The notes: a model not told the origin generated them from the letters alone. 64,000 nucleotides of DNA from Octopus sinensis (GCF_006345805.1 NC_042999.1:138074001-138138000), one strand, 5' to 3'. Counted from the first letter of the stretch, positions 10,737 to 16,792 are shown. Numbers and translations: made by a program.

Positions 10737-11300
10737 AACGGATTTCCTATTTTCTTCCTGAAGAGAAAGACACAATATGGTCCCATTATTCAATCGGATT
10801 TTGGTAATTTGTGCCTTTCGAAATAAAACGATTTCTGTTCAATCTGCGTTCAGCTCCATTTCTTCAATTTACCAATAATGTTTTATATATATATATATAT
10901 ATATATATATATAAAAATTATTGGTGAATTGAAGAAATGGAGCTGAACGCAGATTGAACAGAAATCGTTTTATTTCGAAAGGCACAAATTACCAAAATCC
11001 GATTGAATAATGGGACCATATTGTGTCTTTCTCTTCAGGAAGAAAATAGGAAATCCGTTTTGTGCCTTTCGAAACACGTGTAGAATGAAATAAAACGATT
11101 TCTGTTCAATCTGCGTTCAGCTCCATTTCTTCAATTCACCAATAATGTTTTAATTTCAATTATCCGCACCAACGCACGGTTGCAACACCATATGGTTGTA
11201 CCTCCAACCGTGCTGTTTACTGCTGTGATTTTTGCTACTAAGGTATCGGTTAAACTTTTGATTAATCTACTACAAGATTATTCATCTTTCTATTTCACAT
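10737..11300 (+). mobile_element. Fold-back hammerhead element B (direct-inverted-direct arrangement) inside (TA)n
   Basis: Arm 10737-10884, (TA)n centre, inverted arm 10913-11059, third partial direct copy 11059-11151, then structured tail. CTGAAGA at 10758-10764; stem II GAAAGACAC/GTGCCTTTC; GAAAC ACGT GTA GAA at 11071-11085. Confidence 0.75.
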
Positions 11301-11353
11301 AATATATATATATATATATATATATATATATACATATGCACATATGCATATAT

Positions 11354-12730
11354 GGGTAATGGGTAATGGAAGTCACTAACAATAAACAACATGAAATACG
11401 AAAACAAATGAGTTCAATACGCAAACAACGAGAGAAACAAAGGGAAAACAGGACAAGTAACATAAAACACGACCTTTCATCAGTTGTCGGCTGTCTATCT
11501 ACTCGTCATTTCGAGCATTGAACGATGATATAAGTCTGCGAAAACAGTTGCTCCCATAAGTACCAAAATATAATTTGGGATTTATGGAGGATCAAAGTTG
11601 AGAACAAAAACAGGACAGTGGAGACATACAATAGAAACCGGACGAAAACAAACATGGAGGGTTGTTAGACCAGAAAGAGGGTAAAATAGCGAACGCTGGA
11701 GAAATATTTTCTTTGACACGAGAAAAGATAGAATAGAGAGATGGGATAGTACAGTCCTTAGGACAATCTTGAAAGAAAAGAAAGATGATCATGCGAGGAA
11801 AAGAAAGATGGACGATGGTCACGTGTGAGCAACGAGAGCGAGAGAATAGGAGAAAGAGGGGGAGAGAGAGGTACAGATAGAAAACGGCGAAGGATAGAAA
11901 AAAAGGAATTAGAGAAAAGATGGAAGAGAAAAGGACTCTACTCTATACTGTTTTTCTCCCCCATCGTTTCTCTCGTTGTTTGCGTATTGAACCCATTTGT
12001 TTTCGTATTTCACATTGTTTACTGTTGGTGACGTCCTGCACCTATATATATATATATATAACGGGAAGCTTTATGAAAATAAACAAAAGACGAAGGCAGG
12101 TGGAGTACAAACAAACAATTGTATTAGTATGGCGCTCAGGAATATAAATAAAACAAGTCTTTTACGTTTCGAGCCTACGCTCTTCAACAGAAAGATACAC
12201 AGAAAAGAAACACGGAGAGAAACAAGGAGAGAAAAAAATGCGTGCCAGAAGTCAGAGATCAAACGTGAGACGCAAGAGCGAAAATAGGGAAGATAACAGG
12301 GTCAAATGATTTCGCCCCAACATAAGGGTGCGTGTGTGTATGAGAGAGTATGTAGTGCGTATGAAAGGTCTGGACGTGTGTATGTATGTATGATGCGATG
12401 TGTAATGTCGTATGGTGTAGTGTAGAGAGAGGAGATGAGGGGAGAGTGGAGGAGGAGGGAGGAGATGAGGGAGGATATGAGGGGGGAGAGGGGGAGAGGG
12501 GAGGGAGAGGGGGAGAAGGAAAGAGGAGAAGAGGAGGGAGGAGTGAGAAGAGGAAAGGTGAGAGTGAGGAGGGTGAGATGAGGGGGGAGGGTGAGAGGGG
12601 GAAGAAGGAAAGAAGGAGGGGGTGAGGGTGAGATGAGATGAGGGGAGGGGGTGAAATGAGGGTGAGGGTGAGCGGGGGGAAAAAAGGAAAGAGGAGAAGA
12701 GGAGGGAGGAGGGAGTATATAAAGCTAAGC
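11354..12730 (-). mobile_element. Probable Penelope-like element non-coding (pLTR/UTR) region; boundaries uncertain
   Basis: Begins at a (TA)n tract, has a strongly purine-skewed low-complexity body, a hammerhead-like motif at 12158-12195 and a lone CTGATGAAAGG on the minus strand near 11474-11483. Confidence 0.45.
12158..12195 (-). ncRNA. Minimal hammerhead-like motif (core CUGUUGA)
   Basis: Minus strand reads UCUUU CUGUUGA A GAGC GUAG GCUC GAAACGUA AAAGA. Stems I and II are perfect, stem III is a loopless ACGU palindrome, and A6 is replaced by U. Confidence 0.55.
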
Positions 12731-13229: not shown

Positions 13230-15690
13230 AAATCATGCATTCAAACATTGCCACCAGCAATGATACTAACAGTGTACAATAACAAATAAATGCGAACATA
13301 AAAACAGCAATACTGAACATTATATTACTAAACATGGTATTACTATAATAAAAATACATTTTCCCAAACGTCATCAAACGTCCCACTACTCTACAAACAT
13401 CAATTACAGTATCTTAACATAAGCCCAAAGACTTACAGTTTGGAAGCCTTTATTGCATACGGGGCATCCTAGTAAAAACAAACATAATATTTACACTAGC
13501 TTCCACAATTCCATAACAAGGAATTTCCCAACTTTCATCTTCTGGCAAATCACTGTCCATCATATTATCATATTCACAAAACAATCCCACAGCGAAAGGG
13601 AAACTCATTCAAAACTTTCAGCAAACTCGGTGGAACCATTTTCGAACAAGAGACATAATTATAGACCACAGAATTCTACCATAACACAATCCCTAATATG
13701 GACACAACAGTAGAAGTCAATATATATATATATATATATATATATATAGCTCAAGGCAACACACACACACACACACGTACGCACACACACAAACACGTAT
13801 GCACACACACACACATTCACGCACACACATTCACACACGCACACATTCACATACATACACACAACACACACGCACACACACACACACACAACACACTTAA
13901 ACGTATACACTCACAAACATATTCACACATACACACAACACACACACATTCACACACGCATACATTCACATACATACACACACACATAAAGTATACACAT
14001 TCTCACAAACACATTCACACACACACAACACACACATTCACACATGCACACATTCACACACGCACACATTCACACGCATACACACACAACACACACGCAT
14101 ATACACACAGACACACACACATACATACATACATGCATATATACATACACACGGACACACACACATACATACATACATACATACATACATACATACATAC
14201 ATACATACATACATACACAGCAAATTTACACAGTTTCATCAGAACATAAAAAGCAATAGAAATAAAACTGAATCAAACGACAAAATAAAGAAATAATGAA
14301 AAAATATAAATCAAAGATAAGCATAAAAATTAACAAAAATTTGCATCCAACACAAATCATAAAACAATAAAACACTACACGAAATACTACAATTAACGAT
14401 TCTAACAATAGCCACACCACATCGCATGTTATAAGAGCAATTTCAAGTTTAGGTTGACTTCATTATTAAACACTTTTCAGTTACAAAGATCCACAACAGA
14501 GAAACAAAGCGTAAGATACACGCCCTGCCACTGGTCCATGACCATGACACTTTCCTTCTGCTGGATACATGAAAAACAATAAAGAAATTTTTTAAATGAT
14601 AAAGCTTCAGAGTTTGACAAAATCGTTTCCATGTATACAAGACAGGCTACGGCCTGAAGTATTAGCAATGTCTTAAACTAGTCGTATATCAATATCCGAT
14701 ACGTAAAGTCTGGAAACTGAAAAATTATGGTGTTTCTAAAATCTTACGTAATACGTAACATAGAAGCATCACAGAAACCCATCAGCACTTTGTGCATACC
14801 TTCAAATCACAAAGACTTCTCGACTCCTGTTATACATCACCAAGTCATACATTCCTCCTTTCGATTCACGCAACATGGATTCACCTACTAAGATTAGCCG
14901 CCACACTACTCACGGACTATAAATAAAGAATACACGACGGTATCAACCTTTACATGCACTGTCATAGCTATCCGTTATACGAATAAAGCGATGGACATGC
15001 ATAAAATACTCAATCTCATAAAAAAATACTCGAAATATTACCTACAAAACTACCTCTCAAATCGCCAAACATACACAAAATTCAATAAAACAACGAATCT
15101 TCACTTTCCCAAACGATGTAGCGTATGGATCCATCCTCTCATTCATTCTTTTTGACTTATAACTATCGACCTGCTCACACTGTCACAAAAATGCACTAGC
15201 GTTATACACAGGTGACTTTATAGTTACATCTCATCATTTCATGGACACAGTTTCATCATTTAGAAACATAGCTTCAAGAACATCTCAATCAAATGCCACA
15301 CCAAAATGACATGAAACATACCCCTACACAGTAGACAAAAATAATTACAATTACGTGCAAAACCGCTTTAGAATTCATTCACAGCAAACGTACAACAAAG
15401 TAAGACTTTTGAAGAACTAACAGACACCACGTTTAGTCAACGAATGTAACAACATCAAATTAAATGACAAAGAATATAAACGCCGCACTTCGCATCGTCA
15501 AATTGAACGCGAACCACACATACAGACAAGCTGAAATATTGACGTAAACATGGAAGATTGTTTGGGCATGCATAAAGCACAGTTTATTGTCGTCGCAAGT
15601 TTCAGTACGAATAGTTCCTGCAAAATCACTTCCAAAGGACATCCATAATGCATCAGCACACTATCACAATGCCTTACAAAAACCACCATG
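13230..15690 (+). pseudogene. Highly decayed Penelope-like relic, interrupted by a CA-rich microsatellite
   Basis: About 15408-15458 translates F-E-E-L-T-D-T-T-F-S-Q-R-M-*-Q-H, resembling the GIY-YIG YIGxTxxxFxxRxxxH motif. The upstream extent is inferred from composition only. Confidence 0.35.
13720..14218. repeat. Compound (TA)n/(CA)n/(TACA)n microsatellite
   Basis: Seen directly. Confidence 0.95.
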
Positions 15691-16251
15691 ATATATAGAT
15701 ATATATATATATTATATATATATATATATATATATATATATATATATCGTAGCTATTATGTTAAACTGTCATTTGTCCAAAGGTTGTTTTTTCAATATTT
15801 TTTTGCTTGCAATAGCCGTTCTTTTGGTCAAAAGATCGTTCTCCAGCTGCTTCAGATGCCAAGATATAAAAAATTGTCCCAAACTGTAGTACATCGGTTT
15901 TGCCTATGGAATAGTGAAACTATCTTATCATTTTCTGAAAAGCAACGTCTTGGATTTACGACACTTTGCATAATAGGAACGATATATAATTATATATATA
16001 TATATATTATAAATATAATATATATTATATATATATATATACTATATATATATATAATATATATATATAATATATATGTATGTATATATATATATATTAT
16101 ATATATATATAACATATACATATATATAGATATATATATATATCTATTATATATATATATATATATAATATATATATATATATAATATATATATATATAT
16201 ATAATATATATAGATATATATATATGTATATATATATGTATATATATAATA

Positions 16252-16792
16252 TATATGAATAAATGAAAGAATGAAGTCGAACGAAGATTTTAACACAAAT
16301 TCCTTTAGCTCAACACAGTTTCGAAGACTGCATCTTAATTCCGAAGGAATAAAGGAGCATATGCCGTTTCTCATCAGGAAAGACAAGGAGCCTCATCGCC
16401 TCAAGACGACAAAAAACTTTTGATGACTGCCTACATGGTGCACTGTGGACACCATGTAGGCAGTCATCAAAAGTATTTGTTCGTCTGAGGATGATAGAGG
16501 CTCCTTGTCTTTCCTGATGAGAAGACGGCATAATGCTCCCTTTATTCCTCGGAAATTAGGGTATGCAGTCTTCGAAACATGTGTTGAGAGTAAAGGAATT
16601 TTGTTTAAAATCTTCGTTCGACTCCATCTTTCATTTATTCATATAAAAAAAACACACACACAAATTTCACACAAGAACACGGGGTTTCTGCCATTGGCAT
16701 GTAGCTTCAACCGTGTTTTCTGACGTGAATTGCTACCCAGGTATCGATTAACCGAATTATCCATACTAGGATAATTCATTCACTACTTAAAC
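16252..16792 (+). mobile_element. Fold-back hammerhead element C inside (TA)n
   Basis: Inverted arms 16252-16440 and 16450-16645 with a 9-nt loop, then a structured tail of about 145 nt. TA tracts lie on both sides. Confidence 0.8.
16509..16590 (+). ncRNA. Minimal type I hammerhead ribozyme with intact core
   Basis: CUUUC CUGAUGA GAAGAC...GUCUUC GAAAC AUGU GUU GAGAG. Stem I CUUUC/GAGAG, stem II 6 bp, stem III ACAUGUGU self-complementary with G-U pairs. Predicted cleavage after 16585. Confidence 0.75.

Follow-up and report, generated by a model that had tools for sequence, protein, structure and literature searches.

Two short repeats in the genome of Octopus sinensis, here called elements B and C, end in a similar tail of about 145 nucleotides (nt) directly before a run of (TA)n, and the question that they raise is what this tail is and what it does. 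They lie in a stretch of 64,000 nt (GCF_006345805.1 NC_042999.1:138074001-138138000), the whole of which is referred to as the window. A first-pass annotation made from its sequence alone had read the tails as conserved, covarying RNA structures that act in cis in recognition or priming by a reverse transcriptase (RT), or else as an unrecognized structured RNA. Our analysis suggests that both elements derive from Penelope-like elements (PLEs) of a Hydra-like clade; the same tail also stands upstream of the open reading frame (ORF) of such elements, and a core motif in the tail is predicted to pair with the 5' untranslated region (5' UTR) of that ORF. Neither the upstream position nor the pairing had been part of the annotation, whose overall interpretation is partly supported. 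On balance we lean toward a reading in which the shared tail is the last ~145 nt of a Hydra-clade pseudo-long terminal repeat (pseudo-LTR), lying between two likely RT start points, and in which the pairing of the core with the 5' UTR builds an RNA platform recognized by the RT. Among known features the best fit is the PLE tail (Frangieh 2024), here apparently in a longer, structured form that would be bridged to the 5' UTR. PMC8557442 gives the PLE tail as 30-40 bp, often present at only one end of a unit, and also describes (TA)n targets.

Identity of elements B and C and layout of their insertions

Both tails, the two hairpins of each, and the core motif could be read from the window sequence where the annotation had placed them (Table 1). 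The core common to the two tails is GCTAC..AGGTATCG, and in both the terminal hairpin is separated from (TA)n by a gap of 15-18 nt. A covariance model of the tail, R1, matched element B at 11163-11304 (146 bits) and element C at 16666-16798 (122 bits), and an Rfam scan of the window placed no family on either tail. By itself the 15-mer core pattern is not rare at the scale of the window, where it has 2 matches and where at least 2 were also obtained in 15 of 100 shuffles. Across the 2.72 Gb of genome searched, TGCTACNNAGGTATCGNTTAA gave 2188 + 2238 = 4,426 matches and its reversed control 0 + 0. A search with the C tail returned 1761 first-look candidates, and the 40 that were scored showed 94-100% identity.

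In longer B-type and CA-type copies the upstream sequence continues into an ORF. One such copy, L073, has an intact ORF of 904 amino acids (L073:514-3225) with RT motifs FDI..FYPSI and Y.DD and, C-terminally, a GIY-YIG endonuclease, whose VYQ...YSYVGAS...R..H...E...N block aligns with seven database relatives. The sole named homologue from the database search is a cephalopod one, and Pfam made no call on the L073-type ORF at E<=0.01. With a 576-amino-acid ORF fragment from L063 as query there were 26,164 first-look candidates; 76 were scored, and their open frames reached 923 amino acids. According to PMC8557442, the Hydra clade is marked by DKT, an RW motif, the lack of CCHH, and the patterns CxxC..E and N..CxH. 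In L073, DKT replaces DKG (SDKTRN), and the aligned relatives have DKT apart from one DKS. The RW motif of L073 (IRWLVFF) reads RWL and not RWK, the relatives having RWR or RWK, while KCNLCVSE and NG...RCPH are invariant in the alignment (C.LC..E and N...C.H), the core holds at most one Cys, and the GIY-YIG domain has no CCHH. A CxCX5C linker is missing from L073, where a long N/S-rich insert is followed by GCSSRNKYS with only the first Cys retained; of the seven relatives, six show CNC or CxC...C at this place and one reads SC. Between RT and endonuclease, residues ~520-800 of the L073 ORF contain two long low-complexity N/S/G-rich inserts, none of which is present in the seven shorter relatives. 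Judged by these sequence motifs, the elements belong to a Hydra-like clade of PLEs that is very abundant in the genome.

Element C is tied to the same clade by L067, an autonomous C-type copy on the minus strand in which the sequence 3' of the ORF is collinear with the C arm of the window. Because L067 and the B-type and CA-type copies are collinear with the window arms, B and C can be understood as truncated insertions of two autonomous families, and we regard them as 5'-truncated, head-to-head insertions of two diverged autonomous PLE families. The annotation had taken them for distinct non-autonomous elements, a view that is not borne out, as they look instead like truncated inverted dimers. 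It had also raised the question of whether autonomous PLEs end in the same motif; those of the Hydra-like clade do, with L073 carrying the tail at both ends, and the proposed association of the tail with PLEs and hammerhead-type boxes was supported, the block being kept across families. We further considered animal retrozymes, which are tandem ORF-less monomers, and rejected them as a class for B and C because the 5' ends of the arms vary and the arms are collinear with the 3' part of ORF-bearing copies. Annotation would change as a result: thousands of short (TA)n repeats with hammerhead boxes would be truncated inverted dimers of autonomous PLEs and not an independent class.

The layout of insertions was sampled in 20 motif copies from contig 1 and in 30 C-type copies. 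Insertion into (TA)n was found for all 20 fetched motif copies and for most C-type loci printed in full. They follow a common plan, in which a 5'-truncated forward arm consists of hammerhead-type boxes, a spacer and the tail, and most have an inverted arm as well; the typical insertion is a head-to-head pair of 5'-truncated arms with the tail on one arm only. As the tail itself served to select the C-type loci, the information lies solely in the state of their second arm. That arm is present in 24 of the 30 copies, ending at reference position 495 (an internal ATATA patch) in 21 and at 468-481 in three, and in none of the 24 does it enter the tail (reference positions 496-640). Genome-wide, a 22-mer at the arm end occurs 842 times and a 22-mer in the tail 455 times, or about 2:1. 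If arm ends were independent, about 37% of tail-bearing units should have two tails, and the probability of finding 0 of 24 would be near 1e-5, by a rough calculation in which the two 22-mers may decay or cover subfamilies unequally. The sample reveals a strict rule of one tail per insertion.

At the downstream edge of the tail, C-like copies have one dominant end point (45 of 70 anchors, at least 8 of which continue into an ORF), as do CA-type copies (17 of 26, with 3 continuing into an ORF). The 3' ends of family D fall at several TA-ending points, and two of its 25 copies (L139 and L142) run further, into what tandem copies have as 5' UTR; the template therefore went on beyond the tail. At the inner side of the insertions the 5' ends of arms also cluster, about 10 of ~52 arms stopping at reference positions 280-297 near CACTGTGGACACC, often in both arms of one unit (L001-L030). 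This cluster might reflect either a strong RT stop or the 5' end of the RNA, transcription then beginning within the pseudo-LTR.

Table 1. Features of elements B and C, and the tail of element A, in the window (positions counted from its first letter; hairpins are predicted).
Feature	Position	Strand	Description
Tail of element B (TA-type family)	11147..11300	+	from the CCAATAATGTTTTA TA-rich patch (end of tail-less arms) to the last base before (TA)n
B hairpin 1	11174..11213	+	outer stem GCACGGTTG (11174-11182) / CAACCGTGC (11205-11213); inner stem ACC/GGT; in the minimum free energy (MFE) structure
B core motif	11231..11253	+	TTTGCTACTAAGGTATCGGTTAA; 15-mer part GCTACTAAGGTATCG at 11234-11248
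B terminal hairpin	11260..11283	+	GATTAATCT-ACTACA-AGATTATTC; 8/9 pairs, T.T at position 3; 6-nt loop
B forward arm	11060..11146	+	5'-truncated within the ribozyme-box region, begins TTGTGCCTTTCGAAAC; collinear with full-length copies L031-L044
B inverted arm, tail-less	10915..11059	-	3' end adjoins (TA)n at 10888-10914
Further tail-less B arm	10739..10887	+	near-perfect palindrome with 10915-11059 around (TA)n
Tail of element C	16647..16792	+	begins at the internal ATATA patch and extends to the base preceding (TA)n
C hairpin 1	16676..16717	+	outer stem AACACGG (16676-16682) / CCGTGTT (16711-16717); inner stem TGCC/GGCA
C core motif (GATTAA variant)	16730..16751	+	TTGCTACCCAGGTATCGATTAA; 15-mer part GCTACCCAGGTATCG at 16732-16746
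C terminal hairpin	16754..16777	+	GAATTATCC-ATACTA-GGATAATTC; 9/9 pairs; 6-nt loop
C forward arm	16446..16646	+	hammerhead-type boxes CTGATGAG (16513-16520) and CGAAAC (16573-16578); collinear with the region 3' of the L067 ORF
C inverted arm, tail-less	16265..16445	-	ends at the TA-rich patch by (TA)n; the C locus of the window is L001 (arm at reference positions 297-495)
Tail of element A (related but distinct family)	10066..10135	-	in common with B and C only: GCTACC.AGGT and ATTATCCAT

At 10739-11059 two tail-less B arms meet 3' to 3' across (TA)n with an identical 5' truncation point, forming a near-perfect palindrome of ~300 nt. It is the source of many spurious sub-threshold matches to Rfam families of plant-miRNA type. 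The sole Rfam family above threshold in the window is a mir-1 precursor at 47425-47492 on the minus strand (46 bits, gathering score 45.6).

Predicted structure of the tail and its pairing with the 5' UTR

L073 has two copies of the tail, at positions 398 and 4046, and the upstream one leads directly into a 5' UTR of ~50 nt, with the ATG at 514. BLAST of the L073 ends revealed a 12/12 reverse complement between GGTATCGGTTAA of the tail and TTAACCGATACC, the latter stopping 5 nt short of the ATG. Copies with a full-length 5' end are rare, since the pattern AACCGNTNCYRCAAATGGAG has just 34 genome matches (control, 1). From 30 loci fetched, the tail stands directly upstream in 24 of 29 distinct sequences that bear a 5' UTR. 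RNAfold placed the helix between core and 5' UTR in the MFE structure of all 11 family junctions, with pair probabilities mostly of 0.8-1.0. The 3' arm of the helix, of 12-17 nt, stops 0-8 nt short of the AUG, and most families lengthen the helix by UUUGC:GCAAA beside the AUG. Over 25 junctions, 88.7% of the cells of this helix are paired, and the whole tested structure of three helices reaches 89.5% as opposed to 26-48% in slid controls. As far as the literature that we searched shows, this pairing is a new point, with no earlier description found. A splice donor (CAG|GTATCG) with an acceptor (ATACAG) was also considered and dropped, because the AG reads CCG or CTG in types B/CA, L114 and L177, and because positions +4 to +6 of the donor fit poorly.

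A tail that directly precedes the 5' UTR in most copies and whose predicted helix ends close to the AUG at every junction tested could also be conserved mainly as a structured leader of the messenger RNA. The helix and hairpins would then control translation of the ORF, transcripts would start in the upstream pseudo-LTR, cap-independent initiation after ribozyme cleavage would be a possibility, and the position at insertion ends would be a by-product. Conservation in the tail is highest in precisely the block that is predicted to pair, as a leader would have it. The ribozymes of R2-type elements have a role in translation. A related precedent is suggested by the title of PMC13725137, 'RNA viruses can exploit self-cleaving ribozymes for translation initiation'. 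Cleavage is only putative here: the copies show hammerhead-type boxes, CUGA(U/A)GAG and CGAAAC about 50 nt apart followed by a palindrome (ACACGUGU / ACAUGU), and Rfam found no hammerhead in the window at gathering score or E<=1 and none at E<=10 in L073, L081, L129 and L123. In the PLE studied in vitro, moreover, no read had its start or end at the ribozyme site, and mutating the ribozyme left insertion normal (PMC11167929). A leader role would also leave unexplained why insertions end precisely at both edges of the tail, and as the chief reason for its conservation we find it unlikely. The two roles are not mutually exclusive.

Within the tail, both hairpins are in the MFE structure of B (z -2.85, 3/200 shuffles as good), of C (z -4.09, 0/200) and of L076 (z -4.48); the fold of L046 is weaker (z -2.03) and that of L050 indistinguishable from shuffles (z -0.48). 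About ten tail types were sampled (TA, CA, C, and D to J) through pattern, DNA and protein searches, so that sampling of families is uneven. In the first nine representatives the blocks TCAACCGTG, TTCTG..TGA, TTTGCTAC, AGGTATCG and AATTCAT are constant, and family D has changes in several of them. Model R1 aligned 60 copies (59 distinct), with 88.8% of cells paired as opposed to 24-50% with slid partners, and 7 pairs changed on both sides as opposed to 3.3 in shuffles (0/500 reach 7), counts that are inflated by copy number and come from an alignment fitted to the structure. Over the 59 distinct copies, the columns of the outer stem of B hairpin 1 are 92% paired and the terminal hairpin 88.7%.

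The changes that keep pairing fall chiefly in the terminal hairpin, where pair 122-137 is UA in 35 copies and AU in 15, and pair 126-133 is CG in 17 and UA in 16. By type, C-like tails have U-A at position 5 of the stem and C-G at position 9, whereas tails of the B and CA types have A-U and U-A at these places. A rough count gives a chance of ~0.007 that 5 differences in 18 stem positions should fall as two kept pairs and one single site, for a comparison chosen post hoc. Families D and E retain the terminal stem around a loop enlarged from 6 to 18 nt and of different sequence. In hairpin 1 the inner 3-bp stem varies between families as A-U, G.U and G-C. One position of its outer stem changes from U-A in B to A-U in D, with intermediates that are mismatched, and the middle of the outer stem is interrupted by a C.U mismatch in D and the L115 type. 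Apart from a small invariant element, RNAalifold called just one stem, the outer one of hairpin 1 with 5 bp. We consider the two predicted hairpins plausible and mildly supported, not proven.

In the helix between core and 5' UTR, family D, with core GGTAACTGTTTAT and 5' UTR ATAACCGTTACC, turns U-A into A-U at pair 22-130 (4 of 25 rows), and a one-base bulge in the same family restores an end pair that is A.A in family E. Such a pair of blocks is an inverted repeat in DNA as well, and the tail could function at that level, as a recognition site for the endonuclease that favors tandem insertion or as part of a pseudo-LTR promoter, with core and 5' UTR block being inverted protein-binding motifs. 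A direct repeat, TGCTAC(Y), lies beside both helix arms and is unpaired in the model; Y is T twice in one TA-type copy (L034) and C twice in the CA-type L073, as matched binding motifs might be. Earlier work cited in PMC11167929 found that the tail of Drosophila Penelope is needed for endonuclease recognition of plasmid targets, and the same paper places a promoter 'likely' in the pseudo-LTR. G.U-type states would break a DNA motif, however, and they occur as GATGCC in L034, GTTACT in L181 and a G.U in the inner stem of the TA-type; the few in L034 and L181 lean toward RNA. Stems are retained while loops vary from 6 to 18 nt, as RNA hairpins would be, and nearly all insertions are in (TA)n and not beside older copies. 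We regard a function in DNA as decidedly unlikely.

Whether the tail is constrained at all was judged by comparing the CA-type (L073) with the C-type. Identity is 62% over the last 600 nt of the ORF (z 31), 71% in the ribozyme-box region (z 18.3) and 67% in the tail (z 10.7), whereas the 3' UTRs cannot be aligned and score no better than shuffles (z 1.2). The tail is under constraint, but not above the rest of the pseudo-LTR. Its identity, on a par with that of ORF and ribozyme boxes, and the mismatches tolerated in some families could be accommodated if it had no specific function and owed its distribution to shared descent and to exchange of pseudo-LTR modules by template switching between co-expressed families, the hairpins being incidental. 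At least one chimeric copy fits such exchange: L165 (1392-1517) joins an F-type tail to the D-type 5' UTR block AACCGTTACT, which suggests exchange between families. Neglect of this kind would hardly spare the tail while the adjacent 3' UTR diverged beyond alignment, nor confine the differences between the B and C terminal stems to two complete pairs and one single site beside a far more variable loop, and chance is very unlikely to produce 12 nt of perfect complement within 100 nt. We therefore hold the absence of function to be very improbable.

A model for the start of reverse transcription

A role in the start of reverse transcription would account for the edges of the tail as well as its conservation. 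It is the leading reading because in vitro work on another PLE, Poseidon PAc of Anolis, puts RT initiation at the tail edges (PMC11167929). There, an RNA that spans pseudo-LTR and ORF forms a stem-loop with two neighboring internal sites at which RT begins, and the genomic tail corresponds to what lies between these starts; cleavage and extension affect both DNA strands, and RNA must be present 3' of the start site (PMC11167929). By analogy, a double-strand cut in (TA)n would give two 3' ends, each priming complementary DNA (cDNA) on the element RNA and so producing head-to-head arms. One 3' end would start at the downstream edge of the tail (site 1) and the other at the upstream edge (site 2), and site 1 would be internal to an RNA that continues into the 5' UTR. 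Both hairpins, together with the helix between core and 5' UTR that would bracket site 1, may position the RT, and the 5' UTR arm of the helix may be the RNA required 3' of the start. Of the cis-acting RNA signal proposed in the annotation, the role in RT start or recognition stands as this leading reading, and recognition of the tail by the RT is what we infer.

A more demanding version is that the PLE RT needs a platform in two parts, the pseudo-LTR tail and the 5' UTR of the next ORF, which only transcripts that link the two would possess, with the helix closing a loop in which terminal hairpin and RT start site both lie. We put this forward tentatively and consider it doubtful; if true, it would explain internal initiation, the need for tandem or pseudo-LTR copies, and the presence of exactly one tail per insertion.

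Several observations weigh against the favored reading. Covariation is real but thin, amounting to two pairs in the terminal hairpin and one or two between core and 5' UTR. The annotation's description of the tails as covarying holds for those two compensated terminal-hairpin pairs, whereas RNAalifold found no compensatory pair among nine family representatives and abundant intermediate families are mismatched at positions 5 and 9 (A.A and C.A). The L050/L113 type likewise forms only 7 of the 9 terminal-hairpin pairs, with two uncompensated mismatches. In the junction alignment the 3 pairs changed on both sides equal the shuffle mean of 2.8 (322 of 500 shuffles reach 3), an uncompensated T.T interrupts the core helix of family E (7 of 25 junctions), and that of family D contains a U.C mismatch. 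That the GATTAA variant of the C-type in the window is compensated in a 5' UTR was rejected, the corresponding pattern GCTACNTTAATCGATNCC having 0 genome matches. An inverted pair of protein-binding DNA motifs would show equal 'compensation'. The tail is not singled out from its surroundings, because the ribozyme-box region is equally conserved. Published data leave the strict one-tail rule unexplained, because PAc start sites did not differ between strands (PMC11167929), and the C-type sample from which the rule was read was itself chosen by tail. All 24 sequencing runs found are contigs whose RNA status is guessed, and those compared with the element break at repeat borders, with no starts or ends visible. 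Finally, the element A family and a second clade of PLEs in the genome, Neptune-like, use (TA)n without this motif.

Template choice and the start of copying in PLEs have been studied in vitro for only one element (2024), with the RNA signal mapped to a stretch of ~170 nt. The natural differences between roughly ten families of this one genome point to two hairpins, a 23-nt core and a partner directly before the AUG, and so to concrete mutants.

Other families and comparison with known systems

For element A the annotation had noted GCTACCAGGT, which is indeed present on the minus strand at 10088-10097. Its membership in the same tail family did not hold, since its tail differs and model R1 gave no match at E<=1. 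It represents a third family with its own ORF (L081) and 1236 first-look candidates (L078-L097). Members end uniformly at ...TTATTATCCATTA(TA)n, which corresponds to the loop position of the terminal hairpin of B and C and leaves no 3' arm. At L081:1540-1720 the tail continues into a 5' UTR and an ORF that starts MMDKITLNVSLKDIPIP, and folding of this single copy gave no convincing pairing between tail and 5' UTR. The Neptune-like clade (L051-L062) has a CCHH GIY-YIG endonuclease with extra Cys residues (LIY.ITC.GC..YIGHT), a linker of CX2-5CxxC type (KCG.PNCGIC), and also (TA)n. Its ends read ...CGAAACATG...TTTTTTACAAA(TA)n (e.g., L058:1-1791 and downstream), and the tail motif was found within 1.5 kb of none of 12 Neptune-like loci.

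Contigs from runs labelled organisms B, C and D contain a quarter to half of the sampled element words, and one of organism B has an L050-type tail as a loose end. Because contigs of these three other organisms contain element words, near-identical families seem common to close relatives. A search of metagenome contigs with a single protein returned one 1.4-kb locus with just 66 nt 3' of the ORF.

The octopus families resemble the Hydra clade as described by Craig et al. 2021 (PMC8557442) in DKT, the RW motif, the lack of CCHH, the CxxC and CxH round a conserved E and N, (TA)n targets and pseudo-LTRs with hammerhead-type boxes, whose arrangement is like the 'HHR_half_core' of that paper. They differ from it in unit size, which is ~3.6 kb with a 904-amino-acid ORF here and <3 kb there, and in that they have a pseudo-LTR, are very abundant, and replace the CxCX5C linker by an N/S-rich stretch; the one octopus Hydra family seen in the supplement of that paper is 2507 bp long and has no pseudo-LTR. 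The core motif was not found in the supplementary sequences as available, where wrapped lines and possibly incomplete files make for a weak test. Animal non-LTR retrozymes, as described by Cervera and de la Pena 2020 (PMC7229834) and Li et al. 2026 (10.64898/2026.07.22.740005), are likewise short hammerhead-bearing repeats from PLE pseudo-LTRs, but they form tandem arrays and are thought to move via circular RNA. B and C instead occur as single inverted dimers, which are truncated 5' to varying extents and match autonomous copies collinearly.

In 'stringent' pairs of long and short interspersed nuclear elements (LINE/SINE) and in the 3' UTR of R2, a 3' stem-loop of the RNA is recognized beside the start of target-primed reverse transcription. 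The octopus tail would be similar in being a conserved structured RNA by the start point that is common to elements using the same RT. Those systems have their signals at the true 3' end of the template. Copying of the octopus elements, by contrast, likely starts internally, and of the predicted helix the 5' UTR arm would lie 3' of the start and would not be copied into the new 3' end.

The closest comparison is with PAc (PMC11167929). The octopus tail is ~145 nt long (reference positions 496-640) and not 30-40 nt, it lies upstream of the ORF, whereas PAc starts fall 111-118 nt inside it, and it adds two predicted hairpins and the predicted pairing of its core with the 5' UTR. It is known from genomic end points alone, while PAc starts were mapped in vitro, and its ends coincide with TA-ending patches able to anneal to (TA)n, whereas PAc starts without target homology (PMC11167929). 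In both systems the extension is found at only one end and the two edges behave as alternative cDNA starts. In both, too, the start would lie inside an RNA spanning pseudo-LTR and ORF, the target is AT-rich, and both target strands would be used, which fits the head-to-head arms of elements B and C.

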